In this document: one piece after another, positions 1-32,000 of the stretch | How positions within the stretch are numbered: position 1 is the first letter of the stretch | Layout of the letters: every line of letters begins with the position of its first letter | From: Candidatus Saccharimonadota bacterium | GTDB lineage: Bacteria; Patescibacteriota; Gracilibacteria; Absconditabacterales; Absconditicoccaceae | Reading direction: 5' to 3' | DNA length: 32,000 bases | Assembly: GCA_030429145.1 (NCBI GenBank) | Contig: JAUIDC010000001.1 | Location: forward strand, 150,001-182,000 | The notes under the pieces: generated by a model | What the model saw: only the letters and a program-made list of their open reading frames with translations | What the model was told of the DNA's origin: nothing | Database searches by the model: none | Program-made: the position numbers and the translations under genes

Positions 1-743
1 TCGCCTCACAAATCGGCGTCGAAGTACTCGTCTGTACTAAAAGTTATGATGCCCTCGCTCAAAGTCGACAAAACGTCTCTACTCTTTTCTCTGGCCTGAT
101 ACAAACGTATACCAATCAACTCTCATATCTCAGCACCCTCACCGGCAACGACGAAAATTTCTTCCAGTGTATCTCTGCTTACCGTCAACAACTCAATACT
201 AATATTTCACAAATCAATCAACACTTTCCAACTATCAATAAACTCAATGCCCTTTCTACCTCGAGACAACGCACCTACAACACCTCTCCTCTTCAGTGTC
301 CTCTCGGTATTGATCTTAGACAGGACATTATAGATGTTCGCACCTATGAACAAGAAACAAATGAGCTGCTCTCTAGCAATCAGCATATCGAGAACATGCT
401 TGCAACTGGCTCCCTACAGACTATACAGGAGATATGCCAAACAGCAACCAGTGAACAAGAGTGATCAGGCCACTCTCTCGACGATCTGCTTTCTGTGTTT
501 ACAGGCTCACAGCAACAGCTTATGCAGCAGCCTCCACAGACCACCTGAGCCAATAGTAACACTGGTTCATTTACCCAGCTACCAGAAGAGACCCGAAACA
601 TCATCAATGATATCTATGAAAATAACACCAAATACATCGACCTCATGCAACAGACAAAGCAGGATAAAAGCTACAATCCACTCCGACGTATCCAACAACT
701 CTTTCAAGAGTTCTACGGCGACACTGAAGAATTTACAAGATAG
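1..743 (+). CDS. hypothetical protein, 5'-truncated at the window edge (C-terminal 246 aa visible)
   Basis: Open in frame 3 (codons from nt 3) to TAG 741-743 when TGA=Gly. Two in-frame TGA (462-464, 546-548). Q/N/T-rich, no family recognised. Track ORF 334..921 is a different, implausible frame. Confidence 0.5.
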
Positions 744-793
744 CTACAGACCTTTTTCAACTTTATACATTTTTAATTTTATATTATATTCCT

Positions 794-1597
794 ATGATTG
801 CTTTCCATATTGGGTCCATCCCCATCTATCGATACGGTATCTTCTATCTCGCAACTTTTGTTGTTGGCTATCTCTTTCTCATTCGAGTAGGCAAGATCAG
901 AATGTATGCGAAGTTCGATAATGCTCAAACGATACTTACAAGATGAGTCGATGATATCGTCCTCGCCTCGGTCATTGGGATACTTGTAGGCGGTAGACTT
1001 GGAGAGGTTCTCCTTTACAACCGAGAATACTACAGCCAAAACCCAGCAGAGATTATTGCGGTCTGGCATGGTGGTATGTCATTTATCGGTGGCATTGTCG
1101 GAGTCATCCTTGCAATTCTTTTCTTGGATAGAATGTTCAAACTATCGAGAAAAGAGCTTCTTATCATCTTTGACCTCATCCTCGTGATCGTACCTATCGG
1201 TATCATCCTTGGTCGCTACGGCAATTTTCTCAATCAAGAACTGTATGGCATCCTCGCGCCTTCTCGATGGCCAGAGATCCTTACGCACACCTATACCACC
1301 ATTGATAACCAACCAAGGATCAACACAAACTTTCTTGCACTCCTCTTCGAATGAGCCCTCACTTTTGTTGTCTCTCTCTTCCTTTTCTTCAAACAAAAAA
1401 TAACTAAACATATCACCCCAGGAGTTATCTCGGTCACTTTTATCTCCCTCTATTCTATCATCAGATTTTTCCTCGACTATCTCAGACAGGATAGCCAAGG
1501 TCAATTTATGGGACCATTCACTACTACACAATGGTTTATGCTCTTCTTTTTCCTCTTCGGCATAGCCCTTTGGAGATATCTTATCCAAAAAAGATAA
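794..1597 (+). CDS. lgt: prolipoprotein diacylglyceryl transferase
   Basis: 267 aa after joining fragments across TGA 944-946 and 1352-1354. N-terminus 'MIAFHIGSIPIYRYGIFYLATFVVGY', 'AVWHGGMSFIGGIVG', 'GRYGNFLNQELYG' and 'LLFEG' match Lgt signatures. Ends TAA 1595-1597. Confidence 0.88.
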
Positions 1598-1599
1598 TC

Positions 1600-1627
1600 T
1601 TGACTTTTGAGATTTGGGGCGTAATAT
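1600..1627 (+). promoter_or_regulatory. candidate sigma-70-type promoter (TTGACT-N16-TAATAT)
   Basis: TTGACT at 1600-1605 and TAATAT at 1622-1627, in the gap after lgt and upstream of the 1661/1682 ORF. Confidence 0.35.
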
Positions 1628-1660
1628 TCAAAGCACGCTTTACATCACAACATTCAAAGT

Positions 1661-1882
1661 ATGTACTGAGGAAATCTTAATATGTTCCAGACTATCGGCA
1701 ATGGTCATAATAAAGGCTATGACGATTACAATTATTACAATGAACAGATAGCTCATAAAGACTGAGTGCAACAGAAAAAAGAAACTACCGCTGCTATCAT
1801 TGAAGCACTTTCAGACAAGAAAGAAGAGCCAGTTAAAAAAGAAGGTGATGATGAATACATTCAATCCATCCCAGCTTGTTAA
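1661..1882 (+). CDS. small hypothetical protein (73 aa; alternative start ATG 1682)
   Basis: Frame-2 ORF open with two TGA=Gly, ends TAA 1880-1882. Acidic/Lys-rich C-terminus, no family recognised. Confidence 0.35.
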
Positions 1883-1908
1883 TTTTTGATTATATAACGT
1901 CATATAGG

Positions 1909-2190
1909 ATGAACCTGAGTATGCGTATAAATATAAATCATCTACCTGCACAGGAATCAGAATTAAAACAGCTAGCGACTATTTGTAGGCAAACAAGATT
2001 AGATATTGCAAAAGAGTTCACCACTATCCAAGATCGTTTTAATAAAAGAAATGACACAGAGTACGAACTACCTGATTTTATGGATATGATCAATAGTATC
2101 GACTGAGAAATTGACTACCTTACATGAGGGCAAGGCTATACTCCACAGGAATATATAGATATGCTTGAAAGAAAAGAGAAACGTGCATAA
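1909..2190 (+). CDS. small hypothetical protein (93 aa)
   Basis: Track ORF 1876..2106 continues through TGA 2104-2106 and a second in-frame TGA ('YLTGGQGY') to TAA 2188-2190. First ATG is at 1909. No family recognised. Confidence 0.4.
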
Positions 2191-2202
2191 TTAACCCTCA
2201 AA

Positions 2203-2910
2203 TCACTTTTCTTTGATACTCATAGCCACTGAAACATCACCCTCTTGGGTGATTTTTCCATTTTCGAGAACGTAGACGTGATCAACGGGAATGTAGTCGA
2301 GGATAGAAAAGTAGTGCGTGATGACGATGAAAGTGTTATTTTGATTATTTAGTTCTTTCATAAGAGTAGCCACACTACGGAATGCATCCACATCGAGGCC
2401 ACTATCCACCTCGTCGAGGAAGATATACTTTGGCTCTAGTAAGCGTAGTTGTAGAATTTCAATCTTTCTTCTTTCTCATCCACTAAATCCGACATTGAGA
2501 TCGCGCCAAAGGAAATCACGGTCTATATGTAACTCCTCTATCAGAGGTTCAATGACCTTTTTAAATGCGAGAAATGTTATTTGCTCTCCCACTTTAGCAG
2601 AGTAAATAGTACGTAGAAATTCAAAAAGTTTTACGCCTTTGATCTCTGGGATAGATTGAAATGCAAGAAAAATACCTTGCTGTGCTCTCTCATTTGGCTC
2701 CATCTCTTTAAGCGATTGTCCATCGAGGAGAATATCTCCGTCTGTAACCTCATATGAGGGATGTCCCATGACCGTAAGAGCAAGAGATGACTTACCAGAA
2801 CCATTTTTACCGAGCAAACAGTAGTTTTTTCATAACTCAAACTCCATTTTTACTCCTTTCAATACCTCTTTCTCCTCTACCGTTACGTGTATATCTTTTA
2901 TTGTTAACAT
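2203..2910 (-). CDS. sufC: Fe-S cluster assembly ABC ATPase SufC
   Basis: Track fragments 2203..2409 and 2476..2817 plus an upstream piece join in one frame (235 aa). TGA 2476-2478 gives 'NVGFSG-G-ERRKIEILQL' (ABC signature) and TGA 2830-2832 lies in 'MEFEL-G-KNYCLLGKNGSGKSS' (Walker A). N-terminus 'MLTIKDIHVTVEEKEVLKG' is SufC-like. Ends TAA. Confidence 0.85.
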
Positions 2911-3011
2911 CAATGCATATTAGGTCTAAACAGGTCAATATAATAGGTAAAAAGCCTCAAAAAACAAGGGGTACGGTGGACTTGACTTTTTCTCCTATAG
3001 GGATAAACTCT

Positions 3012-3446
3012 ATGTACAACAAAAAGCCAACGCTTATGAAATGGAGAAATACACTAATGTTGGGGTGGTTAATCCAGCTCATCAACCCAGCGTACAAAGG
3101 CAGGGTGAGCATAACTTGCAATAACATTCCTGTCTCAGTTGAGCCAGATCTCCTTGCTCTTATGACTATTGGACTAGGACAAGCATCTGTAAATTCAAGT
3201 TACAGTATGCAGCCAGCCGTCCCCATGGGCTATGACGAAGAGGTTGAGTATGACACTGCTAACAGTGATTACTCCTCTGACATGCACTATGTTACCATCC
3301 AATTGCATAACGGTAAAACCGTACGTGCAGTAGCAGCGGATGGCGATAACGTACAACGTCTCCAACAAGGACACGAAGTACAAGTCAGAAAAACTCATTG
3401 GCTCTTCAGCGACACGAAAGCCACCGTCTATGAACTACTACAGTAA
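3012..3446 (+). CDS. hypothetical protein (144 aa; start uncertain)
   Basis: Inner ATG of track ORF 2787..3446; the upstream part overlaps sufC antisense. No in-frame TGA, ends TAA. No family recognised. Confidence 0.45.
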   Translation: MYNKKPTLMKWRNTLMLGWLIQLINPAYKGRVSITCNNIPVSVEPDLLALMTIGLGQASVNSSYSMQPAVPMGYDEEVEYDTANSDYSSDMHYVTIQLHNGKTVRAVAADGDNVQRLQQGHEVQVRKTHWLFSDTKATVYELLQ

Positions 3447-3464
3447 CAATATTATTTCACGAAA

Positions 3465-3487
3465 AAGCGCCTCGTATCGGGGCGCTT
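3465..3487. terminator. bidirectional intrinsic terminator hairpin between convergent genes
   Basis: AAGCGCC (3465-3471) pairs with GGCGCTT (3481-3487), flanked by an A-run and T-rich tail. It lies between stop 3446(+) and stop 3492(-). Confidence 0.6.
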
Positions 3488-3491
3488 CTGC

Positions 3492-5420
3492 TTATTGAAA
3501 TATTTTCTCAAACATCTGTTCTATCTCATCTCTCTTCGTTTTAAACTTAGGGTCTTTTATCCAGCTACCAAACTGTTTGTGACAGAAGTCGATGGTTTCT
3601 TCTACTCACTTGTGTTGTATACCCATATAGGTTTCCGTGTCTCACTGTTTTAGTAAGAAGATATTATCATCATAGAGGTCATCAATGAGGTTAACTATCT
3701 CCTTCCATTTTTGAGGGCTCTCTTCTTGTAGTAACTGAATCACCGTTGGGTATCTCTTTGTCTTAGGTAGGCCTTCTATATGTTTTCTATAGGCTTTCAT
3801 GTCGATCCTGACACCAGTATCTTGGATGTTATCCCAGTCACCGATAAAGTAACTTTGTAATCCAAACTTATCGAGGAATTTATTCCATCTGTTGAATGAA
3901 CCTTTTCCGTTGATATTAATAATTTCATAGTTAATAAGTTTTTTTGATCGCTTCGGATCTTTCTCCGCCAAGTAGTTCAAATAAAAGCCAAAGAAAAGCT
4001 CATCGATCTCGCCTTCCACCATGATGATTTTGTTCACAAAGAATATCTTTGCTGTATTGGTGAAGCGAAGTATCTGTACGAGGTTTGATTCATGTTCATG
4101 GTATGAGTGCAACGGTGACACCACCTGTGTCTCATGATTTCTCATATAGAACCTATGCACGTACTGGATATTGTTTTCATTGATAAGTAGTGCTGCGTGT
4201 GTTGCAACTACACACTGGATCTTCAATGCGTTACCTACTCTCTCCAAAAGAGAGAGAAGTTTTTTTTGTAGCTGAGGGTGTAGATGCAATTCAGGTTCAT
4301 CGATAACTATCAGTCCATTCTCGAGATCAAATCCATATAGCGTTGTGATAAGGAAAAGGATAGCTTTGTCCCCTGAAGACAACTCATCAAACGAGTAGCG
4401 ATGCCCCGCACTGTTTTCTAAGAAAAACGTATATCTCGTCTGCTCGTGCTCAGGTCTGTAAAGTCTCAATGAAAAGCCAATATACTCCTCGAGAAGCATA
4501 TTGATGGCAGCATACTCTTTGTTGTCTTTAAGTACGTCCTTACATGGTTTATCTCCACCAGGACATGTATAGTGGTATGCTTTTGCGAGTTTCTTTTTTA
4601 ACATCTCAAAACCGATCGGCAGATTTGCCTGTGAGAAAAAGTCCTTATCTTCATCGATCGTCTGGAGTACATCACTACCATAGCGGAAGTGCAGGTCATA
4701 GTGCGAATCCAGATGCCCAAGTTTTCTATAACATCAGATAATAGCAAACGTATTGTTCAAGTGACGAACTCTCTCCTTCGGATCAGTGATGATAAATGTA
4801 TTGTAAATGGTAATCAGATGCTGAATCGCTTCAAAGTGTTTGATATAAGCGAAGAACAACTGCCCTACCGGATCAGTATCCAGACAGTTTGAACTCACAA
4901 CTCCCGTCTTCGTATTGATCTTGCAACTCACATGAAGTGACTCACGTTTCATCACATCATCTACCGAGACCCCATTGTTAAAGCGAACTGGAATTCTCGA
5001 GTAGGTTCCAAGAAGCTCATTGATCTTCTGTGCATACTTCACGATGAATGCTGCGTTGTCACGGTCAAGATCTGAGAGGTAGAAAGAAACCTGTATCTCA
5101 CTTGGTTTGTCTTTATGATCATTGTGTGGTGGAAGCGCAACGATCGGGTGAGCAATCTGTGTAATCGTCCTATCATAATTCCCCACGTCTTCTCTTTTTA
5201 AAAACTGATCATTGAGTGTATAACGATCTGTCATACCTACGCGAAACATATAGTTCACTATCGTAAGAAAATTACTTTTTCCTGAACCGTTAGGTCAGAT
5301 GAGAATGTGTGTATGCGCATCTATTGTTCATACCGGGAAAGTAATCCCTCTATCCGTTTTCATATTCGGCACATACGGGAAGCTCAATAAGTTCGAAATT
5401 TTGATGTTGTGTATCTTCAT
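3492..5420 (-). CDS. OLD-family nuclease-like protein (N-terminal ABC/AAA ATPase + C-terminal Toprim)
   Basis: 642 aa after joining track ORFs 3642..4604 and 4734..5258 with three further pieces across 5 in-frame TGA. Walker A 'HILI-G-PNGSGKSN' has its first Gly encoded by TGA 5295-5297. Other motifs: signature-like 'ELSSGDKAILFL', Walker B 'LIVIDEPELHLHP', H-loop 'VVATHAALL'. Toprim motifs: 'KIIMVEGEIDELFF', 'NINGKGSF', 'IGDWDN' (DxD). The apparent stop TGA 3642-3644 reads through 49 more codons to TAA 3492-3494. Confidence 0.62.
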
Positions 5421-5537: not shown

Positions 5538-5554
5538 ATGAAGAATGCCAAGAA

Positions 5555-5755
5555 TTATTTCTTCTTCTTAGCAGCGCTTTTTTTCGTAGCTTTCTTAGCT
5601 ACTTTCTTCTTTGCAACTTTTTTAGCTACCTTCTTTTTAGCAGGTGCTTTTTTAGCAACTTTCTTCTTAGCTACCTTCTTAGCAGTAGTCTTTTTTGCTA
5701 CCTTCTTCTTAGCAGGTGCTTTCTTTGTTGCTTTCTTCTTTTTTGCAACAGCCAT
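5555..5755 (-). CDS. histone H1-like Lys/Ala-repeat DNA-binding protein (66 aa)
   Basis: 'MAVAKKKKATKKAPAKKKVAKKTTAKKVAKKKVAKKAPAKKKVAKK...' is almost entirely AKKK/VAKK repeats. Start taken at the internal ATG 5753-5755 of track ORF 5555..5854; the longer start 5854 is possible. Ends TAA. Confidence 0.7.
   Translation of the reverse strand: MAVAKKKKATKKAPAKKKVAKKTTAKKVAKKKVAKKAPAKKKVAKKVAKKKVAKKATKKSAAKKKK
5625..5722 (-). repeat. in-frame 72-nt-period direct repeat inside the histone-like gene
   Basis: gctaccttctttttagcaggtgcttt (5625-5650) and gctaccttcttcttagcaggtgcttt (5697-5722) match at 25 of 26 nt. Both encode the repeated 'KKAPAKKKVAKK'. Confidence 0.7.
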
Positions 5756-5866
5756 CGTCTGTGCGAAATTATGAAATAAATATTGTAGTGCATCGATGAA
5801 TATTTCATCATCACGTATGATAGATAGAAAAAATACGAACAATTGCAAGGGCAAATTATTTTTTCA

Positions 5867-6571
5867 CTACCAATTTTTTATTAATCGTCATCCAATGATC
5901 GCAGCAGTTTCCATTCTCAAAATATTTTCACCGAAGGATATTTTTTTTACATTATTTTTTTCAAACATTTTTTCTTCATCCTCATGTCGTCAACCTTCAG
6001 GTCATACCAACACTATCACATCATTACTATTTTCATTTTTTTCTCTTTGAGTCATAAGTTTTTTCACATCTTCTCCGTCTTGATGAGCCACAAAAATTTC
6101 TTTTCACTCACTCCATAAGAAAACATTTTTTTCGAAAAAAAGGTTGGGGATTTTTTTTCATCGTGATTGTTCAACAGCTTCGAGTGAAATTTTTTGCAAA
6201 CGTTCCATTTTTTTCTCTGACATTTCTTTAATGATCGAATGTTGTGCAGGGAAAAAGACAATTGTATCTACTCCTGCCTCCGCACACTTCTGCACAATCA
6301 ACTCCGCCTTATCAAACTTATTTGGCATCGCAACAGCGAGGCAGTTACTTGCTTTATCAAGCTCTAATCTCTCTTCTGTAACAACCTCAGCCTCTATAGC
6401 ACTCTTCGATATGTCTATAATTTTTATCACTACTCTTCTACCCTCCCACTGCACGGCAACCTCGTCTCCCACCTTCGCACGCAACACTTTTGAAAGTTGA
6501 TGAACTACCCTCTCTTCTGTAAGAGAGATAATATTGTTAGTTTGTATGTATGGTGTAATGAATAATTGCAT
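5867..6571 (-). CDS. rsmE: 16S rRNA (uracil1498-N3)-methyltransferase RsmE
   Basis: Track ORF 6158..6571 (PUA-like N-terminus 'HQLSKVLRAKVGDEV') continues through 5 TGA to TAG 5867-5869 (234 aa). C-terminus 'VLV-G-PEG-G-' (TGA 6002-6004, 5990-5992) and 'ISFGENILRMETAAI' match the RsmE SPOUT motifs. Confidence 0.85.
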
Positions 6572-6592
6572 ATGATAGATGTTACATACGTA

Positions 6593-7321
6593 TTAAAACA
6601 ACTCATCTTCCTCACTCACTTCCTCTACAATCTCCTGCGTCTCAGGGTCTACTCTCCAGTCGATTGGCTCCAATCCGTGTTCCTGTAAGTACTCATTTGC
6701 TTTGCTAAAGTGTTTACAGCCGAAGAAGCCAGAGTGGACGGAGAATGGTGAAGGATGAGGCGATTCGAGGACGAGGTGCTTTGTTGTGTCGATAAGTGCC
6801 TTTTTGCCTTTGGCAAAGTTTCCTCGAAGCATGAAGACGACGTGTTCTTTTTGGTCACTGATGGTTTTAATGACAGAGTCGGTGAACTGTTGCCGCCCGA
6901 GCTGTTGGTGTGAAGCAGGCTGATTGGCACGAACTGTCAAAATAGCATTGAGCAATAGCACCCCCTGCTCAGCCCAAGGAGTCAGATCTCCCGTCTTTGG
7001 AACAGCCAGTCAGATATCCTCATGTATCTCCTGATAGATATTCTTCAGTGAGGGCGGCAGCGCTATTCCCTCCGGCACACTAAATGAGAGACCCATGGCT
7101 TGTCCTGGTCCGTGATATGGATCTTGTCAGAGGATAACGATTTTGACGCGATCGAAAGGCGTGGTATTGAAAGCATTGAAAATAAGATTTCCCGGTGGAT
7201 AGATAGCATGTTGTTGTTTTTTTTCTTCGATAAGTTTTTCTTTGATAGTAGCAAAATAGTCTTTGTGAAACTCGTCTGCTAGTGCGTCTTTCCATGACTC
7301 CTCTATCTGTATCTCGCTCAT
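6593..7321 (-). CDS. ung: uracil-DNA glycosylase (family 1)
   Basis: Track ORFs 7127..7321 and 6593..6961 join in frame (242 aa). TGA 7127-7129 supplies the Gly of '[21 protein letters not shown]'. '[15 protein letters not shown]' and 'SPHPSPFS' are also present. Second TGA at 7010-7012. Ends TAA. Confidence 0.92.
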
Positions 7322-8062: not shown

Positions 8063-10027
8063 TTACTCTTCATCTTTCTGTTTCTTGTCTGTTGGCTGTG
8101 ACATCTCCTCTGCTCCAGTGTCATCACCCTGTTCTTCAAGGGTCATACCAACGATAGCATCTTCTGCAGAGATGGCATCAAGCTTTGATTCATCTTTTAC
8201 TGCATCACGATTGATATACACAAACATAGGCATAATCATCGGTACACGACCAATATTCTTCTCTATGAACTCTCCGAGCTCATCCTTCATAGTCTTCAGG
8301 ATCATTTTCACATCTCCCGTATTCTTGAGATGGTGATAGAATTTCTTCTTTGCGAACTCTACGATATCTGTATGGATTTTTTGCACCTCTGATGAGTAGA
8401 CGAAACCACGTGACTCGATCTGGATATTACCCACGAGTTCTTTGGTCTTTGTATCTACCTTAAAGATAAGCGCTAACACACCGTCCTGCGACATGATTTT
8501 ACGAGCCTTGATCACGTACTCTCCTGAGAGATGACCCATACCAAGACCGTCGATCATAACAACATCAAGTTTCATCTGGTATTTTGAAAGTTCGACTCTA
8601 TCGTCATACATTTCGATAACGCTACCATTTTTCTCTGGCATGATAATGTTTTCATCAGGTATTCCCATATCTAGACCCAATGCTCTGTGAGAATATCTCT
8701 CTGCAGCAGGCATATAGTATGGAAGGAAATACTCAGGTTTCACAAGTCCAAGCATGATCTTGTGGTCTTCTGCACCACCATGACCGCTGGCATGTACGTC
8801 CATCGCATCATTGGTAATAAGATTGATCTTCTTGATAACGAGATCATTGATCATCTTTGCAAATTGTGACTCATTACCAGGAATCGTACTTGCAGACATC
8901 ACGACAGTGTCACCTGGTCTCAGTTCAAAGTGCTGGTGCTCTCCTCTTGCAATACGCGCAAGTGCCGAGAACTCTTCACCTTGGGCACCTGTAGAAAGCA
9001 ATACTACTCTTTCATCTGGTAGTGTCTCGATCTCGTTTGCATTGATCAGCTTACGAACCGTTCCCTTTGGAAAGTTAATATAGCCAAGCTGCTGACAGAT
9101 CTCCACGTTGTTGATCATCGATCTTCCTGAAAGGAATACGACTTTATTATTTTTCACAGCAGCTTGAATAATCTGGATGATACGTCCGACATTTGACGCA
9201 AACGTCGCAATTACCATCCTCGATTTTGTTGCTTTGATAATAGCTTCGATAGACTCTCCGACTCTCTTTTCTGAGATAGCGAAGCCTGGTTTATTTGCAC
9301 CAAGTGAGTCTCCGATATAGAGTTTTACACCCTCTGTACCAATACGTGCGATCTTCGAAAGATCTGCAGGCTTATCGATAGCTGGTGTATGGTCGATCTT
9401 AAAGTCTGATGAGTTGAAGATCAGTCCCTTAGGCGTATGAATCGCCATAGCCATCGTCTCTGGGATGTTGTGGTTCACATGCACATACTCGATCGTAAAA
9501 CATCCAAGTTTTACAATATCCTTATCTGGGTCAATAAGTTTTGCTTTGATTCTTCCGAGCTGTTTTGGATCATCGAATGTTTTCTTCACAATACCGAGTG
9601 TCAGTGGTGTCGTATAGATCATTGGAAAATCCAATGCTGGCAAGACATGACGAAGTGCTCCCACGTGGTCAAGATGGCCGTGAGAAAGTAAAATACCTCT
9701 AATCTTGTGCTGATTTTTCTTCAAATATGAGATATCTGGAATAATATAGTCTGCTCCAAGTGTCTCTTCTGCTGAGAACTCCATACCTGCATCGACGATG
9801 ATAATATCATCCTTGTATTCGATAAAGATACACTGTCCTACCTGCTCTAGACCAAGTAATGAACCAATTCTTACAGGGATTTCTCCCTTGTATACAGGTT
9901 CTTCAAATTGTTCTTGTTTTGGTTTTCTCGTATATCTTCTTGGGCCTCTACGAGTTGGCGCTTTCTTTGCGTTGTTTTTTTTGTTAAAATCAATATGCAC
10001 GTTTGTTGAAATAGTTGATGGATTCAT
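8063..10027 (-). CDS. rnj: ribonuclease J (metallo-beta-lactamase / beta-CASP)
   Basis: Intact 654-aa ORF with 'LSHGHLDHVGAL' (HxHxDH), 'DVHASGHG' and beta-CASP-length architecture. Basic N-terminal extension. No in-frame TGA. Ends TAA. Confidence 0.9.
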   Translation of the reverse strand: MNPSTISTNVHIDFNKKNNAKKAPTRRGPRRYTRKPKQEQFEEPVYKGEIPVRIGSLLGLEQVGQCIFIEYKDDIIIVDAGMEFSAEETLGADYIIPDISYLKKNQHKIRGILLSHGHLDHVGALRHVLPALDFPMIYTTPLTLGIVKKTFDDPKQLGRIKAKLIDPDKDIVKLGCFTIEYVHVNHNIPETMAMAIHTPKGLIFNSSDFKIDHTPAIDKPADLSKIARIGTEGVKLYIGDSLGANKPGFAISEKRVGESIEAIIKATKSRMVIATFASNVGRIIQIIQAAVKNNKVVFLSGRSMINNVEICQQLGYINFPKGTVRKLINANEIETLPDERVVLLSTGAQGEEFSALARIARGEHQHFELRPGDTVVMSASTIPGNESQFAKMINDLVIKKINLITNDAMDVHASGHGGAEDHKIMLGLVKPEYFLPYYMPAAERYSHRALGLDMGIPDENIIMPEKNGSVIEMYDDRVELSKYQMKLDVVMIDGLGMGHLSGEYVIKARKIMSQDGVLALIFKVDTKTKELVGNIQIESRGFVYSSEVQKIHTDIVEFAKKKFYHHLKNTGDVKMILKTMKDELGEFIEKNIGRVPMIMPMFVYINRDAVKDESKLDAISAEDAIVGMTLEEQGDDTGAEEMSQPTDKKQKDEE

Positions 10028-10102: not shown

Positions 10103-10681
10103 ATGTGAATCGACTTTCTTGATAGTTTCAGAGAGCGTTGTATTGCTCGCCGCGTACCAATCATCTCAAAGCCGACAGAGGCGTATCTCAAAGGAATTAT
10201 TGCAAAACATGCTCCTCGTCGTGTTTTAGAAGTTGGAAGTGCCGTGTGATATAGTGCCAGTGTGATTTCCCGTGAAATTGCATCATATGGTGGAATCCTC
10301 TATACATTTGAGATTGGATACCGAGATTATGTAAGTGCATTATATACATTTCATAAGCAACACGCATACAATGTCGTCTCTTACCACGCCGATTTCTTAG
10401 ACGTTGATCTTGCAAAATTGGGTATTGAGAAAATCGATATGATACTAGTAGACGGAAGGAAAAATCAATACAAGGAGTATATCCTCAGGGTTTCCGACTT
10501 CGTGGCCTCTGATGGGATTATTGTCGTAGATGACGCCATCAAGTTCGCTCACAAAACATCTTCATTATATGATTTTCTGGAAAAAAATCAAATCCAATAT
10601 GAGCTCTTACAACTTGACGAAGATGACGGAATCATCGTAATATACAATGCTTGAGTGCAATTACAGAAAAAGAAGGTCTAA
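10103..10681 (+). CDS. class I SAM-dependent O-methyltransferase (family 3, YrrM/caffeoyl-CoA OMT-like)
   Basis: 192 aa with 3 TGA. 'RRVLEVGSAV-G-YSASVIS' (TGA 10247-10249) is the SAM-binding motif I; 'MILVDGRKNQY' and 'GIIVVDD' follow. The apparent stop TGA 10652-10654 reads through 8 codons to TAA 10679-10681. Confidence 0.72.
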
Positions 10682-10720: not shown

Positions 10721-11134
10721 TTATTCTTCGCTCATCTCTTTGAGGTCGATTTTCTCACCCTCAAGTTCCATCTTATCGATAGTTTTTGAGATGAACGGAT
10801 CAACGAACATCCAGTGTGTTGCCGTAGCAAAATCTTCATCTTCTAGCGCATGTGCTGATTGGACAAATGCCACATTTTGATTGTTGTACTTCAATAGATA
10901 GTTCAAAGAGTCTCCTTTGTCTGATACCACTTTGATAGTTACACTATCTTTATCGTATTCACCTGGATAGTCGATAGTAAACGCATCATCTTTATTCTCA
11001 TCATTTTGATATCTCATCTCTTCACCCTTCGTCAGCATGAGATTGATATAGTTTTTTTCTGGCTCTGAGAAACAAAGATAAAATTTCCCTTCAAGGATGT
11101 AGCCGTCTTTATGTGGTTTAATGTTTACTGCCAT
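10721..11134 (-). CDS. hypothetical protein (137 aa)
   Basis: Intact ORF with no TGA, ends TAA. Acidic. No family recognised. Confidence 0.55.
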   Translation of the reverse strand: MAVNIKPHKDGYILEGKFYLCFSEPEKNYINLMLTKGEEMRYQNDENKDDAFTIDYPGEYDKDSVTIKVVSDKGDSLNYLLKYNNQNVAFVQSAHALEDEDFATATHWMFVDPFISKTIDKMELEGEKIDLKEMSEE

Positions 11135-12647: not shown

Positions 12648-12744
12648 AGATATAGTATCAGTAAGTTAAAAGTTATTATATGTTGCAAATATGTATTCAT
12701 CATACAGAAGCCCTCTATTTCTGCAAGTCATTTCTTTCTTCTAT

Positions 12745-12777
12745 ACAAAAAAACAACCGGTAGAGCGGTTGCTTTTT
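12745..12777 (-). terminator. intrinsic terminator downstream of tRNA-Leu
   Basis: CAACCG (12754-12759) pairs with CGGTTG (12766-12771), flanked by an A-run and a T-run, so it could act in both directions. Confidence 0.55.
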
Positions 12778-24733: not shown

Positions 24734-24769
24734 TTGTCTACTGTACACGATGTATGGGTAAAACCTTAA
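24734..24769 (+). CDS. possible 11-codon leader ORF (TTG start) behind a perfect Shine-Dalgarno motif
   Basis: AAAGGAGGT (24721-24729) lies 4-5 nt upstream of TTG 24734. The frame reads LSTVHDVWVKP then TAA 24767-24769 and overlaps ATG 24754 of the large gene in another frame. Speculative. Confidence 0.15.
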   Translation: MSTVHDVWVKP

Positions 24770-26454
24770 GCAGTTTGAGAGGAAAAATTGAGAAAATGGA
24801 TAATATCCTGAGTTTTTCCATACCCGAATCAAAAGTTGTGCAGTACAATATCAATGGCACACCTAGCAACTTGGAAGAGATGCAATGGGATGAACATGCT
24901 GCATTGTATATTTGAAAGATGACTCCCGACAATAAAGGAATATACAACACAGAGAGCATTGAGTGAATGCTCCGCTTTGCTGCGATAAGAAAAAAACAAG
25001 AGAAACCAATACATATTGTCCTAGGACCAGAGCTTTATGCCACACTTGCTGAAGACAGAGAAGAAGAGTTTTTCAGCTACACGAGTCAAGAAATATTGGT
25101 GCAAAACATCGCAGAAGAAGTATGATTAAGTGCTTCCGACATACACATCGAAGATATGGCCAGCATGCATGAAGCACTTTTTACTGCTCTTAAAACACAT
25201 GGAATTGATAGCTTAAATGAAACTACTCCCCTCAGAGAAAAATGAGAAGTAAGCAGTCTCGACATCGCTCAACATCTCTACACTCTTTCCCTCAAACATC
25301 CTGAGCTACAAAAATTATTTTTTAATACTGTCCCTAGTGAACTCAAAAAAAAACTACCAAAGAACCACCCTCTCTGGTATTATGGACTTATTGAGATTGC
25401 CTGCAGGCTCTTTGACTTCAAACAGGGCATCACCATGCAAGGATGAGTAGTAAGGCAAAAAAAATATGACGACGTTCTCCTTGAGCTACTAGATAGCGAT
25501 TCTGCAAGTATGCCAGCGCTAACAGATCTTCAATGATGGCTGCAAAAGCAAATAAACATCAGTGACACGCCGTTTTCTACATGGTATTTTAAAAACAAAA
25601 CATATTTGGATCTCCTCCCCAAAGAAAAAGAAAAACAACAACTAAAAAGCAAACTAACAAACCTCACAGCTATCGTTTCTATAGCCGTTGCTTCTGCGCT
25701 CCTCGGTTGAACAAGTGTCAAACTATATAATGAGCACCAAACGAAGAAGAAAGAGCGCACCAGACAGGAGTATCTTATGAAACAAAAGTTAGAGCACGAA
25801 ACGGTCTGAGTATGAATAGGCTCTGTTGTAGATTATAATTCATATGCAAGCAACGAGAAAAAAATACAACTATTACAAACTACGGCTAACAACGTATACT
25901 ACTATCTCATAGATCGCTATGATATTGACCCACACTCGCAAAAAATCATCAAAAGCATCATAAAAGACGCCCTTCTTGAGAGCGATCAGCATGGAACTCT
26001 CCCTATCAATACCATCAATAGTGATATTGATGAGATCGAAAATCGCTGTCATGCATTTATCGAACAAGACCTCGTCCCTCAACATGCTATAGCGCTCACA
26101 ACAGCTGGCATGGATATCAGACCATATAGCAAATGGATTACACATAAAAACACTTTCGAAGAAACCGTAAACATGCATGAGCAGTTTACCGTAACAGGGA
26201 GCTTTGCCGAAAGAGACTGAGGAAATAATCCGCTAGATCGCTTTGGTGCAAGCGTTGAATCCCTTGGAACATTTACCAATAGTGACAATAAAAAATACGA
26301 ACTTAAACGCGTCAGGATAGATAAAAATAGTATGGTACAAGTCTATCACAAAGAATTTATCGTTGCAAGACCTCTCTACGACGGTACAGACACCTATACT
26401 ACCGACACTGCTAAACTCGTAGCAAAAGAATTGTTAGAAATTCGAGACAAATAA
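24754..26454 (+). CDS. hypothetical single-pass membrane protein (566 aa; alternative start ATG 24796)
   Basis: Frame 1 is open for about 1.7 kb only with TGA=Gly (10 in-frame TGA). The standard-code track shows nothing on this strand. One central hydrophobic segment, 'LTAIVSIAVASALLGG'. Ends TAA 26452-26454. No family recognised. Confidence 0.6.
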
Positions 26455-26559: not shown

Positions 26560-27705
26560 ATGAAAAAATTACTAGCCGGACTAGCTATCATCTCTGCAAC
26601 TGTCCTTGCGGGATGTGGCATGCAAAATGCAAACAACACAGCAAATGGAGAAACACAGACGGTAAAAGTAGGTATGATAGCTCCTCTTTCAGGACCAGCA
26701 GCAACCTATGGTGAAGACGCTATTCGTGCTTACCAGCTAGCAGCTGAGGAGTTCAACAATTCTCAGAACGACTATATGATTGAAATCATTGCAGAAGATG
26801 GAAAATGTAATGGACAGGATGCAACTGCCGCTGCGCAAAAGTTAGTAAATATCGACCAGGTAAAAGTAATATTAGGTGGACTCTGTAGCGCCGAAACACT
26901 AGCAGCAATGAAAGTAACTGAGCCAGCTAAAGTAGTGCTTGTATCAGCTGCTTCATCTAATCCCGACATCAGTAATGCTGACGACTATGTATACAGATAT
27001 TTCAACGACCTTCTCCAAGGGAAAGCTCTCACTGAGCATCTAGAGAAGATCGGAGCGACAAATGTAGCACTCCTCTATGAGAATACTGACTACTCAGTGG
27101 GTCTTGCTAACGTTATTAAAGATAACAAAGGGGATATGAACATCTATGAAGAGAGATTCGCAGCAGAAGAAAAAGACTTTCCAGCTATCGCTAGCAGAGT
27201 TGCCAGCAGAAGCGAAGTCGATGCTATCGTATATATACCTTCATCAGAAGGTAATGTTGTAAGTCTTCTCAGAGCATTAGACGATGAAGGGTTACTCGAA
27301 AAGCTGAAAGGAAGCGTCCTTACTTCAGAAGTTGGGCTCCCTAACTCTGCTTTAGAAACACTTGGCTCTATGACTGATGGAATCCTTACCACACAACTTG
27401 TAGATTATACAACACTCGGAGACGAATCTATTAGATTCATAGACAAATTTAAGAGTAAGTATACAGTAAATCTCACAGACACTTATATTGCTCTCTACAA
27501 AGAGACTTTTGATATGGCTGTAGACTGAATCACAGATTCTGAATATGGCATCAATGATATGAATGCTTATATGCATAGCATTAATGAGCAGAATCCAAGA
27601 GAAGGACTTGGGAAACAATATTATTTCGACGGCGTAGATGCAGTTAATGCTCTTGGCTTTGTTATGAAAAGAGCAGAAAATGGTACATTAGTAGATAATG
27701 AATAA
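26560..27705 (+). CDS. ABC transporter substrate-binding lipoprotein (Leu/Ile/Val-binding, PBP type 1 family)
   Basis: 381 aa. 'MKKLLAGLAIISATVLAGCG' is a lipoprotein signal. 'VKVGMIAPLSGPAATYGE' and 'KVILGGLCSAE' are typical of LivK/LivJ-like binding proteins. One TGA (27526-27528) reads through to TAA 27703-27705. Confidence 0.8.
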
Positions 27706-28523
27706 TGCTATCATATATTCTTCTTAATACATTAATTTACGGAACAATAGCATTTGGCTTGAGTGCATGTTTTGCCTACGCTAAATATCTCAATGTCACT
27801 CTCGGTAGTTTTATGATACTTTGAACCTATGCACTCAGCAATATTATCCGTCATGGTCTATCGCGGCAAAGTATTGCTGTGCTGCTGGGCGCAGTTATCT
27901 TCTATCTGCTCATCAACTATGTGGTCGTACACTTTTTCTCCAACGAAAGAAAAAGGGATCTCTTCTGACTCATATTCACATTATGAGCAGCGCATCTCAT
28001 AGCAAATGTGAACACACTGCTCTATGGAGCAAATCCTATAAGTCTACAACTAGGCACTATTCCCCTGCGAGTCATAGCAGCCATCATTCTTCTTATCAAT
28101 ATTCTGGTATTCTACGTCTTTCGCAAAACCTATATTGGAGCTATTCGAAGAGGAATTTATACCAATGCTGCTTCTATTCGTGCGATAGGTATCAATACGT
28201 TTCGTATGATCCAAAGTTTTTTGCTTAGCTACCTACCTTTTCTCATAGGTCTTGGTTTACTTATCGCCAACCAGAGTTCACTCAGACCAAGCGACAATCT
28301 TTTCTATATCATTAAAGGTATAGGAATTATGATTATGGTGTGATTGGACAAGAGGGAGTATGTGTATGCAGCCGCGTTGGTATATGTTATATTGGAGTAT
28401 GTATTGTTTATTCAGCTCCAGCTTCCTATTCAATACAAAGAAGCGTTTATCCTCGCTATTATTTTGCTCATTCTCCTCTTTAAACCCCAAGGGTTACTCA
28501 GCACAAGAATGAGAAATATTTAG
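27705..28523 (+). CDS. livH: branched-chain amino acid ABC transporter permease (LivH-like)
   Basis: 272 aa with 4 in-frame TGA; its ATG overlaps the upstream TAA (TAATG). 'LGSFMIL-G-TYAL' matches the conserved LivH N-terminal motif. Polytopic. Ends TAG 28521-28523. Confidence 0.72.
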
Positions 28524-28538: not shown

Positions 28539-29411
28539 ATGCAGTTCTTTCTGTTTCATCTACTCATCGTTAGTATTGTCTATTATATCATCAATACATG
28601 ATTTAAGTTTTTTCTCAAATTGAGATTAACGATTGATTTTTCATTTCTCGCAATCGTGATCTTTGGAGCATATGCTGGTGCACTATTAAACATACATTTT
28701 GGGTTAGGAATTATCCCTGCTATTATCATCTCTCGAATCGGTAGTATTCCATTTACACTTTTGATCTTATATCTTTCACAGCGTTTATCACAAATTTATT
28801 TCGTGGTGGGAACACTGGCACTCTATATGTTCTTCTTCCAGCTAGCAACCAACTGGGAGGGAGTAACAAATGGTGTATTGGGTATTTCTGGTATTGATAG
28901 ACTTCTCCGAGGCAATATAGAGATTGGCGGACTAGAGCCTTATCTCATTTTATCAGTGATTCTGGGCCTGATAATTTTACTAGGATTGATGTACTTCAAA
29001 AAAACATATCTCTACACTATCCTCAAATGACGAGGAGAAAATCACAACGTCCTCAAAGTTCTCGGTGTCAAAATCCCGCTCTACACATTTATATTGATTG
29101 CCATTACTGCACTCTGTGCAGTAGTCGGTGCGAATCTCTATTCGTTCTACTATCTATACATTGATCCAAATAGTTTCTGGTTTACTATGTTGATACTATT
29201 GTTAGTAGTAGCGTTTGTCTCATACAGGATGGGAGAGATTCCGACTTTTTTGACCACATTTGTTATTATCTTTGCATATGAATATTTGAGGTTTTTCAAG
29301 GTGGTCGATCCTGCTCTCCTCGGCTATGTGAGAGAAAGCCTCTTTGGATTAATCATCATGGTCACCTCATTTATCACCTTCCGCAAGACCTCGTTTGGAA
29401 GACAACATTAG
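28539..29411 (+). CDS. livM: branched-chain amino acid ABC transporter permease (LivM-like)
   Basis: 290 aa joined from track ORFs 28620..29030 and 29094..29411 across TGA 29028-29030 (plus TGA 28599-28601). 'GVTNGVLGISGI' and 'VLGVKIPLYTFILIAITALCAVVGANLYSFYYLYIDPNSF' fit the LivM pattern. Ends TAG. Confidence 0.72.
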
Positions 29412-29454: not shown

Positions 29455-30189
29455 ATGTTAGAAATTCAAAACTTAGAATGGCATATTGGAAACAATCATA
29501 TCATCAACGGCATTGATCTGAAGATCAAAGAGGGTCAGGCGATATGATTGGTAGGTCCAAATGGGTGTGGGAAGACATCTCTGATTAATCTTATCAATGG
29601 ATTTCAAAAGCCACAACAAGGGTCTATCATTTTCGAATGAAAACGCATCACTCAGATGTCTGTCGAGCAAAGATCTCTGCTTGGGATCGGTCGCGTCTTC
29701 CAGAGTTTTGGTATTTTCAAGAACCTAACATTAGAAGAAAATCTGGCGCTCGCATTTGTGCATAAGCTGAAGCGATGGCAAAAGCGGTTGCCACTCAGTT
29801 TTCTCCCCAAAGAGATCAAACAAGAGATAGAAGACATTCTCAAAGAGGTTGACCTCTATACAAAGAGAAAACATCTTGCTGGCTCACTTTCAGGAGGTCA
29901 GATGAGGCTATTGGAGATAGCAAGGCTCTATCTGCAGGATACTAAGCTCTTTCTCCTCGATGAACCGACTGCGGGCGTCAGCCCCAAATTGAAGGGAACG
30001 GTAATCGATTTGTTAAAAAGAATTATCGCAACGGGAAAGACGGTGATCATCGTAGAACATGACTTTGAATTTTTGGGAGAGTTTGTAGACACCATAGTAG
30101 TGATGAATGACGGGAAAGTGATCTTGAAGGGAGATTATGAGGAGATTAAGGATAATCCGAAGTTGAAGGAAGTGTATTTTGGAAAATAA
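29455..30189 (+). CDS. ABC transporter ATP-binding protein (LivG-like)
   Basis: 244 aa. '[17 protein letters not shown]' (TGA 29545-29547), '[13 protein letters not shown]', '[11 protein letters not shown]' and 'IIVEHD'. Second TGA at 29638-29640. Ends TAA. No second (LivF-like) ATPase follows. Confidence 0.85.
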
Positions 30190-30193
30190 AAAA

Positions 30194-30218
30194 AGCCCCG
30201 GATAAGCCGGGGTTTTAA
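30194..30218. terminator. GC-rich bidirectional terminator hairpin
   Basis: A-run, then CCCCGG (30196-30201), loop ATAAG, CCGGGG (30207-30212), then TTTT. It lies between convergent genes. Confidence 0.7.
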
Positions 30219-30229
30219 ATTCTTTCATC

Positions 30230-30685
30230 TTAACTTTCATTAAAGCTCAGCAAAAGCTCTTCATGAGTTTTAATACTCTTTTCTTTCTCTTGAAGTTCTT
30301 TTTTCAGTTTAACTACTGCATCTTTATCTTCAGCAATATTCTCAGAAAGATATGCTTTTACTAGGATATTTGACTTACCATCTTCTATCACAGGGTCTAC
30401 ATATAACAACATATGAAAACCCAATAGAATACCTGCTATTGCCATACCGACCCCAGTAGACGTAATTAACACAAACACAATAGTCATAACAATATCCGTA
30501 TCAGCGACAGGGAGAGATTTGTCCCCTGTATGAGTTGATATAAAAAACACTTCTATAATAAGCGTCAATAATCCAATCACCAATGAAGCTTTATTAAAAA
30601 ACCGTAATTGATTTTCATTTCGCTCTCTCTTTAGATAGTTCTCACGAACGATTTTCTTAATTTCTTGTAATTTGGGATTTTCCAT
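30230..30685 (-). CDS. membrane protein (151 aa)
   Basis: Intact ORF with two or three TM segments and a coiled, charged C-terminus. No TGA. Ends TAA. Confidence 0.55.
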   Translation of the reverse strand: MENPKLQEIKKIVRENYLKRERNENQLRFFNKASLVIGLLTLIIEVFFISTHTGDKSLPVADTDIVMTIVFVLITSTGVGMAIAGILLGFHMLLYVDPVIEDGKSNILVKAYLSENIAEDKDAVVKLKKELQEKEKSIKTHEELLLSFNES

Positions 30686-30726
30686 GATTATATGTTTTTA
30701 ATATTTTTTTATTCAATGTAATGAAA

Positions 30727-30750
30727 TGGCGGAAGCAATAACTTCCGCCA
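30727..30750 (-). terminator. hairpin after the beta-rich protein gene
   Basis: TGGCGGAAG (30727-30735) pairs with CTTCCGCCA (30742-30750) as a perfect 9-bp stem. The T-tail on the minus strand is weak. Confidence 0.45.
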
Positions 30751-30777
30751 TAAGTAAATTCCACGTACATACCAAGC

Positions 30778-31641
30778 TTATAGCGAAATCAATAAGTATG
30801 ATTTCACACTCTTTGTTTCATAGGCATAACCTATACCAAAGAGAGCTTTGAGGTATTTAGCTTGTACAAGCTTAAGGATTCCTCCTTCTAGGCGTACTAC
30901 ACACTTATTGGGCAATGAATAGCCGAAATCTGAGTATAGTAATAAGTGCTGCTTGCGATGAATCATGAACGTGTTGAGGTTGGCAATGGCATCATTGCTT
31001 TTCCAGAGCACAGTTGTGCTAAAACGCTCATTCTTATAGTCGAAGCCTATGCCAGTAGTCTGGGTCTTTACCTGGTAAAAACCGCTAATGCGAAAGTTCT
31101 TTACCGTACCTGACAACTGATACTCAGGCATGTTTTGGCGAAGAGATAATCCTCCACCGATCATGCTATTTTCAGTTGGTAGATATCTGACCATAACTCC
31201 TGGTGCAGCACCTGGGAAGCGACCCTTCGTTGAAGGTTCAAACTGTCCAAAATGTGAAGCGGGATGTGGCCTATGCTGCAAAGCTGTCAGCGTAGGACTA
31301 AAACCTGCATTTACAATCCACTTACGATGAGGAACATACTGAACATAAGCAGTAGCTAGTCCATACGATACTTGTGATATCGTTTCATACTCTGCAAATG
31401 TCCACGAGTAATACGTTAGTTTCTTGCTCATCTTCCAATGAATAGCTGCACCGACACGGGTATACATAAAGTTGTTGAATTGCTTCGTCTCAGGCTGATA
31501 CAAAGCGCCCGACAATACGCCAGCATATACTTTATCTATCATCACCGCGCTGTCACCTACAGGTATATTGGTAAGCTGTGCTTGAACTGTTAATGAACTC
31601 ATGGTGATAACGCACACCAACGCGATAATTAGTCTTTTCAT
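30778..31641 (-). CDS. secreted beta-strand-rich protein, outer-membrane beta-barrel-like (287 aa)
   Basis: Signal peptide 'MKRLIIALVCVITMSSLTVQAQ'. The remainder shows alternating hydrophobic/polar dyads with Gly/aromatic-rich turns ('FRISGFYQVKTQTTGIGFDYKNERFSTTVLWK', 'ALFGIGYAYETKSVKSYLLISL'). No TGA. Ends TAA. The fold is inferred only from sequence pattern. Confidence 0.5.
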   Translation of the reverse strand: MKRLIIALVCVITMSSLTVQAQLTNIPVGDSAVMIDKVYAGVLSGALYQPETKQFNNFMYTRVGAAIHWKMSKKLTYYSWTFAEYETISQVSYGLATAYVQYVPHRKWIVNAGFSPTLTALQHRPHPASHFGQFEPSTKGRFPGAAPGVMVRYLPTENSMIGGGLSLRQNMPEYQLSGTVKNFRISGFYQVKTQTTGIGFDYKNERFSTTVLWKSNDAIANLNTFMIHRKQHLLLYSDFGYSLPNKCVVRLEGGILKLVQAKYLKALFGIGYAYETKSVKSYLLISL

Positions 31642-31814
31642 ATTTTTCTTTTATTTTGGTTTTTGTGTTCATATTATAATACATATCTCTTATCTGTCAA
31701 TTATGTTGATTAACTTTCTGTTGTTTGAAACCACCAACAACCCCCTAAATTTGCGTAATAGCAAAAGTACGAATATACTAGGATATATCTTATTTCTTAC
31801 GATATTTTACGCAC

Positions 31815-32000
31815 ATGGAATCATTACTTTTGACTCTCCAACAGTACGGTCTTTCTGAGAAGGAAGCGAAGGTCTATCTCACTGCCCTGCAACTCGGTTC
31901 AGCGCCCGGCAGCACTATTGCAAGAAATGCAAAAGAGAATAGAGCTACGGTCTATACCATCCTCAAAGAGCTCCAGAAAAAAGGGATCGTCAACGAGATC
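31815..32000 (+). CDS. TrmB-family transcriptional regulator, 3'-truncated by window edge (paralog of 23914..24687)
   Basis: 'MESLLLTLQQYGLSEKEAKVYLTALQLGSAPGSTIARNAKENRATVYTILKELQKKGIVNEI' aligns by eye with the N-terminus of the first TrmB-like protein. Confidence 0.7.
   Translation, partial: MESLLLTLQQYGLSEKEAKVYLTALQLGSAPGSTIARNAKENRATVYTILKELQKKGIVNEI

Follow-up and report, generated by a model that had tools for sequence, protein, structure and literature searches.

Comparative evidence for UGA as a glycine codon and CGA/CGG as tryptophan codons in a 32-kb chromosomal segment of an uncultured Absconditabacterales (SR1) bacterium

Background

Which genetic code is used in the 32,000-nucleotide stretch of contig JAUIDC010000001.1 (assembly GCA_030429145.1, positions 150,001 to 182,000; hereafter the window)? 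Under the standard code its core genes break at TGA codons, and an initial annotation made from the sequence alone held that the whole stretch must be read with NCBI translation table 25, in which UGA encodes glycine. The glycine part of that claim stood; the table itself was insufficient, because it keeps CGA and CGG as arginine and 37 such codons in the window behave as tryptophan codons. The window is very probably chromosomal DNA of an uncultured member of the Absconditabacterales (SR1) in which UGA encodes glycine, UAA and UAG are the only stops, and CGA and CGG encode tryptophan. Two things are shown directly: what the three codons mean, through residue conservation and the exchange of synonymous codons between relatives, and where the organism belongs taxonomically. 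The right translation is table 25 with CGA and CGG changed to tryptophan, a combination that, to our knowledge, no NCBI table encodes.

Both reassignments are already published, that of UGA in 2013 and that of CGA/CGG, as a prediction, in 2021. The initial annotation rightly treated the UGA recoding as known from Gracilibacteria/SR1 (PMC8629427, PMC4032931). UGA is established as a glycine codon in Absconditabacteria and Gracilibacteria (PMC8629427), and proteomics of a BD1-5 bacterium recovered 97 peptides unique to the glycine translation versus 3 unique to the tryptophan translation (PMC4032931). Table 25, the SR1 and Gracilibacteria code, is credited to Campbell et al. 2013 and Rinke et al. 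2013, as cited in PMC8629427. The Codetta survey (Shulgina and Eddy 2021) predicts that both CGA and CGG have changed from arginine to tryptophan in Absconditabacteria (PMC8629427), and a 2026 paper restates this for Absconditabacterales (PMC13092985).

TGA codons within intact reading frames

Thirty-two genes (8,929 codons) were curated as a conservative set, with starts shifted to clear signal peptides or conserved N-termini and one spurious antisense pick dropped. The 66 in-frame TGA codons of this set are spread over 22 genes, 40 of them lying in genes with Pfam support, and TAA and TAG never occur in frame. A more permissive choice of 38 open reading frames (ORFs) contains 74-76, so the earlier figure of about 70 fused breaks was fair. 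The 32 genes end in TAA (26) or TAG (6), as had been claimed, though this follows in part from treating TGA as a sense codon. Re-calling genes with TGA as sense instead of stop, a check that the initial annotation had proposed, bore the recoding out: a greedy non-overlapping set shrank from 54 to 38 ORFs, its coverage rose from 78% to 92% and its median length from 121 to 243 amino acids (aa), and strand switches fell from 28 to 13. With table 11 the window yields 63 ORFs of 80 aa or more, and many of these overlap on opposite strands. Reading TGA as sense also doubles the six-frame ORF content, and therefore ORF length alone is no evidence of a gene. The greedy longest-ORF choice included a spurious 346-aa ORF (5538-6578, plus strand) antisense to the RsmE gene, which was replaced after frame inspection. 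By a codon-usage log-likelihood for which the Pfam-supported genes were the training set, each of the 32 genes scores positive only in its annotated frame and negative in the five alternatives.

Pfam matches run near full length across the TGA codons (LGT, profile positions 2-239 of 240; ABC_tran; Methyltrans_RNA; UDG; YchF-GTPase_C; BPD_transp_2; Peripla_BP_6), the full-length matches contain no frameshifts, and the Pfam and PDB alignments pass through every covered TGA. Two Logan contigs of 73 and 63 kb, separately assembled from run ERR3428547, show 100% identity with the window along its full 32 kb. Each TGA quoted in the initial annotation was extracted with 15 codons on either side. The peptide contexts were reproduced (Walker A 'IgPNGSGKS', SufC 'GFSGgERRK', Ung 'LgQDPYHG', RsmE 'VgPEGgR', YchF 'GLVKgASKGEG', methyltransferase 'GSAVgYSA') and eight of the nine coordinates were exact; the TGA of the LivH-like 'MIL-G-TYAL' had been placed at 27840-27842, where the triplet is AAT, 18 nucleotides (nt) from its true position at 27822-27824. 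The 364-aa length given for YchF and the read-through lengths (OLD-like protein, 49 codons; methyltransferase, 8; binding protein, 58) were correct.

UGA corresponds to glycine

With TGA masked as X, seven proteins were aligned to solved structures, all apparently from standard-code organisms. The OLD-like protein gave only weak or spurious PDB matches, with nothing on its TGA sites, leaving six informative proteins. The 22 TGA sites with PDB comparators include 14 where all or most of the comparators have glycine, and at no site is tryptophan the counterpart (binomial P for the glycine count about 3e-11 at a background of 7.5% glycine).

For YchF (14909-16003, minus strand, 364 aa), whose Pfam domains MMR_HSR1 and YchF-GTPase_C are matched at full length, four PDB YchF/OLA1 structures served as comparators. 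Five of its seven TGA codons, 78 (15770-15772), 299 (15107-15109), 341 (14981-14983), 347 (14963-14965) and 355 (14939-14941), face glycine in all four structures, codons 261 (15221-15223) and 279 (15167-15169) are at variable positions, and relatives carry TGA or GGN at the TGA sites. SufC (2191-2910, minus strand, 239 aa; a SufC-like ABC ATPase, Pfam ABC_tran), compared with the E. coli and T. thermophilus SufC structures, has glycine in all comparators at its TGA codons 27 (2830-2832), 145 (2476-2478) and 236 (2203-2205). In the uracil-DNA glycosylase Ung (6593-7321, minus strand, 242 aa; Pfam UDG), TGA codon 65 (7127-7129), which lies in the GQDPYHG motif, is glycine in three of three structures, and codon 104 (7010-7012) in two of three. 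The 16S rRNA methyltransferase RsmE (5867-6571, minus strand, 234 aa; Pfam Methyltrans_RNA) has two TGA codons in its GPEGG motif, 190 (6002-6004; glycine 4/4) and 194 (5990-5992; 3/4); two others, 156 (6104-6106) and 228 (5888-5890), are variable.

An O-methyltransferase of the TrmR/YrrM type (10103-10681, plus strand, 192 aa; Pfam Methyltransf_24 and Methyltransf_3) has TGA at 10106-10108, 10247-10249 and 10652-10654. PDB comparators cover only codon 49 (10247-10249), glycine in 3/3, where relatives have glycine (21), TGA (22), alanine (4) or cysteine (1); at the read-through codon 184 relatives have glycine or alanine. In the LivG/F-like ABC ATPase (29455-30189, plus strand, 244 aa; Pfam ABC_tran), TGA codon 62 (29638-29640) is glycine in three of four comparators and codon 31 (29545-29547) is opposite alanine. 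The latter had been presented as an invariant glycine; it lies four residues before the Walker A glycine and is alanine, cysteine or TGA in relatives. The prolipoprotein diacylglyceryl transferase Lgt (794-1597, plus strand, 267 aa; Pfam LGT, E=1e-46) has TGA codons 51 (944-946) and 187 (1352-1354) at variable positions, opposite Glu and Leu in E. coli Lgt. The assertion that TGAs fall exactly where families have invariant glycines was thus overstated: beyond the 14 glycine sites, seven are variable and one, in RsmE, is opposite a conserved Arg/Lys.

A codon-level tblastn comparison of all window proteins with 51 related loci (described below) gave the same picture. Window codons opposite a relative's TGA are GGT (648), GGA (532), GGC (139) and GGG (28), together 1,347 GGN, or TGA (59), and never TGG; the relatives' codons opposite a window TGA are TGA (59) and GGN (48), again never TGG. 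TGG thus stands opposite TGA in neither direction in about 2,000 aligned cells. By these alignments UGA is a glycine codon in the window, with an 11.4% share of its glycine codons, and the earlier call of a sense codon meaning Gly and not Trp is upheld.

CGA and CGG correspond to tryptophan

The 32 genes contain 31 CGA, 6 CGG and 48 TGG codons (35, 7 and 54 per 10,000 codons over all genes). Counted as tryptophan, CGA and CGG supply about 44% of the window's tryptophan codons and raise the tryptophan content from 0.54% of residues (TGG alone) to 0.95%. PDB structures cover 11 CGA/CGG sites, of which five are opposite an invariant tryptophan (P about 2e-7 at a background of 1.3% Trp), two opposite Phe or Leu, and about four at variable positions. 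The five are YchF codon 294 (CGA, 15122-15124, minus strand; Trp 4/4), Ung codons 143 (CGG, 6893-6895, minus strand; 3/3) and 166 (CGA, 6824-6826, minus strand; 3/3, in 'LLWG'), and Lgt codons 13 (CGA, 830-832, plus strand) and 31 (CGA, 884-886, plus strand), both Trp in the E. coli Lgt structure. That structure has Phe at Lgt codon 77 (CGA, 1022-1024, plus strand), and RsmE codon 195 (CGA, 5987-5989, minus strand) faces Phe/Leu. Variable positions are Lgt codon 158 (1265-1267; Leu in E. coli Lgt), RsmE codons 137 (6161-6163) and 229 (5885-5887), and methyltransferase codon 74 (10322-10324). Arginine is the usual residue at none of the 11 sites; single Lys comparators occur at two variable ones.

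Comparison with relatives sets these codons apart from the other arginine codons. Arg or Lys is found in 1% of the cells aligned with window CGA, compared with 74% for AGA, 60% for AGG, 78% for CGT and 50% for CGC, and window TGG is aligned with W, CGA or CGG in 80% of cells. Among relatives, TGG, CGA and CGG interchange within single columns that contain no Arg: methyltransferase column 62 (TGG 19, CGA 19, CGG 7), column 108 of ORF 10721-11134 (16, 8, 4), RNase J column 249 (11, 24, 1), column 297 of a sigma-like protein (5, 4, 0), and YchF columns 294 (6, 1, 0) and 334 (2, 5, 0). In a sweep of all codons, TGA, CGA and CGG were the only ones to depart from their standard meaning, TCC apart. 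The TCC signal came from few sites in many loci, with a low count, and was taken as noise. These comparisons lead to the conclusion that CGA and CGG are tryptophan and not arginine codons in the window.

Plain table 25, with UGA as glycine and CGA/CGG still as arginine, is the sole serious rival and a distinctly improbable one. It is the official NCBI code for the clade, its UGA assignment is fully supported, and the variable CGA/CGG sites at methyltransferase codon 74 and ABC ATPase codons 107 and 111 (CGA 29773-29775 and CGG 29785-29787) are compatible with arginine. However, it would have to accommodate five invariant tryptophans and no usual arginine among the covered sites, a CGA that meets Arg/Lys in 1% of cells when other arginine codons do so in 50-78%, the interchange of TGG, CGA and CGG within columns, and a protein complement with only 0.54% tryptophan. 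Because CGA and CGG behave as tryptophan, a translation with unmodified table 25 is wrong at about 0.4% of residues, among them several invariant tryptophans.

Several observations weigh against the three-codon reading. The eight TGA sites outside the glycine count, taken as variable positions, are uninformative either way, as are about four of the 11 CGA/CGG sites. The sole TGA opposite a conserved residue of another kind is RsmE codon 138 (6158-6160), which faces Arg/Lys in four RsmE structures; the 'QSxR' motif may be locally rearranged at this site. (The TGA is preceded by CGA, and the CGA-TGA pair also occurs in a close relative.) The relatives share the code, so that comparisons with them show codon equivalence and not which amino acid is meant; the amino acid proposed for CGA/CGG rests on the 11 sites, in four proteins, compared with standard-code proteins, and according to the cited papers protein-level (mass-spectrometry) support for CGA/CGG as tryptophan exists in no organism. 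The window contains no tRNA with anticodon UCA, UCG or CCG; no tRNA(UCA) or tRNA(UCG) was found in the window, the 51 related loci or the Logan flanks (53 fetched loci); and Pfam scans of the window's ORFs turned up no release-factor gene.

There is next to no chance that table 4 (the Mycoplasma-type code, UGA = Trp) applies, even though a public protein collection translates the organism in this way. That collection holds the exact YchF protein with Trp at all seven TGA sites and lacks the glycine version, and likewise for a 566-aa protein (see below); these entries reflect the pipeline's choice of table, not biology. Tryptophan is opposite none of the 22 PDB-covered TGA sites, TGG is never opposite TGA, and the glycines of Walker A, GPEGG, GQDPYHG and the ABC signature are among the sites. 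Generic alternatives for in-frame stops are pseudogenes, errors of sequencing or assembly, selenocysteine and occasional programmed read-through; nothing specific speaks for any of them. It is hardly conceivable that the TGAs act as true stops or are artefacts of these kinds, given that TGA alone interrupts the genes (66 versus 0 TAA/TAG), full-length Pfam matches are free of frameshifts, TGA is kept at orthologous sites in independent genomes (the 59 TGA:TGA cells), an independent assembly is identical, the 66 sites in 22 genes align with Gly and not Cys, and Rfam at gathering threshold finds no selenocysteine insertion sequence (SECIS)-type element.

Comparison with described codes

The window shares UGA = Gly, termination at UAA/UAG only and the clade itself with NCBI table 25, but has CGA and CGG as tryptophan where the table keeps arginine. 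All three codon meanings match the code that Codetta predicts for Absconditabacteria (PMC8629427), and no tested feature differs. In that survey, CGA usage per 10,000 codons is below 37 in all species and CGG usage below 7 in all but one (PMC8629427); the window's 35 and 7 fit these ranges, the window having been counted over all genes and not over Pfam-aligned columns. With table 4 of Mycoplasma and Spiroplasma the window has in common UGA as a sense codon, an expected loss of release factor 2 (RF2) and the same ORF boundaries that table 25 gives, but the amino acid is Gly, not Trp. CGG alone is read as tryptophan in Anaerococcus and in an uncultivated Bacilli clade, GTDB order RFN20 (PMC8629427), the latter since named Onthovivens (PMC13092985). 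There too a rarely used arginine CGN codon has been captured by tryptophan; those lineages keep CGA as arginine, whereas both codons change in the window. The change of both codons has been ascribed to a tRNA(UCG) that reads CGA and CGG (PMC8629427).

Putative decoding machinery

Because the decoding tRNAs and release factors do not lie in the window, the machinery is inferred from the clade literature and not observed. As far as that literature describes it, UGA would be read by a tRNA(UCA) whose glycine identity is marked by G1:C72, C2:G71, G3:C70 and U73, and RF2 would be lost, with release factor 1 (RF1) terminating at UAA and UAG. CGA and CGG would be read by tRNA(UCG) and tRNA(CCG) carrying tryptophan identity elements, CGU and CGC would stay arginine through tRNA(GCG), and tRNA-Arg(ACG) would be absent. 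The tRNA evidence in the Codetta paper consists of tRNA(UCG)/tRNA(CCG) with G73 and no A20 (PMC8629427). The only tRNA(CCG) that the tRNA scans found lies in relative L037 (343-413, minus strand; 64% RNase J identity), and its ARAGORN model has G73, G1.U72 and two acceptor-stem mismatches. The G73/G1.U72 combination is Trp-like by the Codetta rule, in another register the stem pairs perfectly and the discriminator is U73, and position 20 cannot be placed; this tRNA was not used as support because of the two mismatches.

The only tRNA that ARAGORN finds in the window is tRNA-Leu(GAG) (12778-12860, minus strand). A tRNA-Leu(GAG) is also located upstream of the RNase J gene in more than 15 relatives. 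The window's copy is overlapped by a spurious 107-aa ORF (12642-12965, plus strand). An Rfam scan of the window at gathering threshold gave no match, not even to the tRNA family.

Relatives and taxonomic placement

Relatives were collected by scanning one genome per GTDB species with the RNase J protein (8063-10027, minus strand, 654 aa; Pfam RNase J domains), which served as anchor and contains no TGA, CGA or CGG codon. All 51 loci obtained belong to SR1, Absconditabacterales or Gracilibacteria-type genomes. Their labels are candidate division SR1 (including the complete RAAC1_SR1_1), Candidatus Absconditabacterales/Absconditicoccaceae, Vampirococcus lugosii and Gracilibacteria, besides unnamed Patescibacteria, 'uncultured bacterium', 'bacterium' and 'Peribacteria', the last an apparent mislabel. 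The closest two, each with 90% RNase J identity, are JAGOPC010000017 and the 1.107-Mb chromosome OZ246420.1. The source is thus placed in the SR1/Absconditabacterales clade, by the similarity of a single protein (RNase J) and not by a phylogeny, and the initial annotation had guessed the clade correctly. Many ENA genome bins bear the label 'uncultured Candidatus Peribacteria bacterium' (L003, L008, L011, L013 and others) but fall with SR1/Absconditabacterales in RNase J similarity and have TGA codons in frame at sites of glycine; their labels look wrong.

Uneven use of the recoded codons

TGA use differs strongly among genes. It is used for none of the 49 glycine codons of RNase J and none of the 46 of DnaK (20924-22843, minus strand; binomial p 0.005 and 0.008), and for 36-42% of those in RsmE and in two further genes, a narrowly distributed one at 24754-26454 (plus strand) and an orphan at 16092-16775 (minus strand). 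In the relatives' RNase J genes, TGA is found at 0-41 of about 50 glycine codons, opposite GGN in the window, broadly tracking the guanine-cytosine (GC) content of the locus. RNase J and DnaK are the two most conserved genes and are presumably highly expressed. A rather unlikely explanation is that the lineage is at an intermediate, still costly stage of a three-codon recoding; if so, decoding of UGA (and of CGA/CGG) would be slow or ambiguous, and selection would keep the new codons out of error-sensitive genes.

Two genes missed by table-11 gene calls

The initial annotation singled out two large genes, at 16092-16775 and 24754-26454, as hidden from standard pipelines. Their coordinates were exact. 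The claim holds only for table-11 callers, which split the 24754-26454 gene into 11 pieces (and YchF into 8), but both genes are present, through table 4, in public calls on the Logan contigs. The public protein collection stores YchF (P0014), the 566-aa protein of the longer gene (P0017) and the 227-aa protein of the shorter (P0020) as table-4 translations with Trp at every TGA, including all ten sites of the 566-aa protein; table-25 versions of the three are absent from it.

The longer gene (24754-26454, plus strand, 566 aa) belongs to no Pfam family. Its ten TGA codons start at 24913, 24964, 25123, 25243, 25444, 25534, 25708, 25807, 25813 and 26218, and it has one CGA (26443-26445). Only the claimed frame has a positive codon-usage score, and the number of chance ORFs expected at this length is about 7e-8. 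Two homologues were identified: P0018 (44% identity, 97% coverage), with G, or W standing for TGA, at eight of the ten TGA sites, and P0019 (30%). The 24754-26454 ORF is a real gene. The shorter one (16092-16775, minus strand) is a 227-aa orphan ORF with seven TGA codons (first bases 16767, 16755, 16722, 16551, 16464, 16386 and 16227) and one CGA (16506-16508). Here too the claimed frame is the only one with a positive codon-usage score; about 0.15 ORFs of this length would arise by chance in the window, and among 5.8 billion proteins the sole match is the gene itself. It is probably a gene.

The value of these results is practical and lies in annotation; a specialist would not be surprised by them. 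Table 4 puts Trp at 66 glycine positions and, with the 37 CGA/CGG codons as Arg, makes about 1.2% of residues wrong; table 25 still puts Arg at the 37 likely tryptophan positions (about 0.4% of residues), including invariant tryptophans of Ung, YchF and Lgt. Structure prediction, family assignment and proteomic searches on the clade inherit such errors. The analysis adds the SR1/Absconditabacterales placement, the insufficiency of table 25 and the occurrence of Trp at glycine positions in a major public collection. The window also lends the CGA/CGG = Trp prediction support that is independent and at the level of residues; the cited papers describe that prediction as unconfirmed experimentally.

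Other genes in the window

Public gene calls on the Logan contig (L001, 11863-12672) miss Lgt; in its place they have two ORFs, 148 and 86 aa long, that run antisense to it.

An OLD-family ATPase with a TOPRIM nuclease domain (3492-5420, minus strand, 642 aa; Pfam AAA_21, AAA_15 and OLD-like_TOPRIM) has TGA at 5328-5330, 5295-5297, 4734-4736, 3642-3644 and 3606-3608 and CGA at 3948-3950. The TGA at 5295-5297 is the first glycine of Walker A, and a relative has Gly at four of the five TGA sites, including both C-terminal read-through sites. Nucleases of this type are often tied to anti-phage defence; this one lies among housekeeping genes.

Upstream of the LivG/F-like ATPase gene are those of a solute-binding lipoprotein and two permeases. 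The lipoprotein (26560-27705, plus strand, 381 aa; Peripla_BP_6) has a TGA at 27526-27528, 58 codons before its TAA. Its Pfam match breaks off ten residues short of the TGA, at profile position 283 of 343, and the domain must therefore continue past this codon. The LivH-like (27705-28523) and LivM-like (28539-29411) permeases, both on the plus strand, match BPD_transp_2 over profile positions 1-269 and 2-264 of 269 and together contain six TGA (27822-27824, 27966-27968, 27984-27986, 28341-28343, 28599-28601 and 29028-29030), five CGA and one CGG.

In-frame TGA codons also occur in ORFs 3-743 (plus strand; at 462 and 546), 11167-11766 (minus; 11710 and 11266), 12252-12647 (minus; 12618), 16886-17938 (minus; 17540 and 17054), 18997-19770 (plus; 19093) and 19793-20182 (plus; 19949) and in a FeS_assembly_P gene (20172-20510, plus; 20241). 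Frame 0 has the best codon-usage score in all of these. Two regions, 1600-2190 and 2920-3490, hold only short, mutually overlapping ORFs without Pfam support and were left out of the 32-gene set, as was a 219-aa ORF without a Pfam match (2787-3446, plus strand).

A type IV pilin-like protein (12946-13491, minus strand, 181 aa; Pfam N_methyl and T2SSG) has TGA at 13384-13386, 13243-13245 and 13021-13023 and CGA at 13153-13155. Both ERR3428547 Logan contigs end inside this gene, at 13435-13450, with a 16-nt overlap, and the break falls in the conserved N-terminal methylation motif. This position suggests a repeat common to pilin paralogues, or strain variation, as the cause of the assembly break.

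At 5555-5755 (minus strand) lies a 66-aa protein with hardly any residues other than Lys and Ala ('AKKKVAKK' repeats), without a Pfam match and matched in one close relative, which may be a histone-like DNA-binding protein. The sigma-like protein (13610-14722, minus strand, 370 aa) contains no TGA and has a sigma-70 region 4 at its N-terminus and a HARE-HTH domain at its C-terminus, an unusual architecture.

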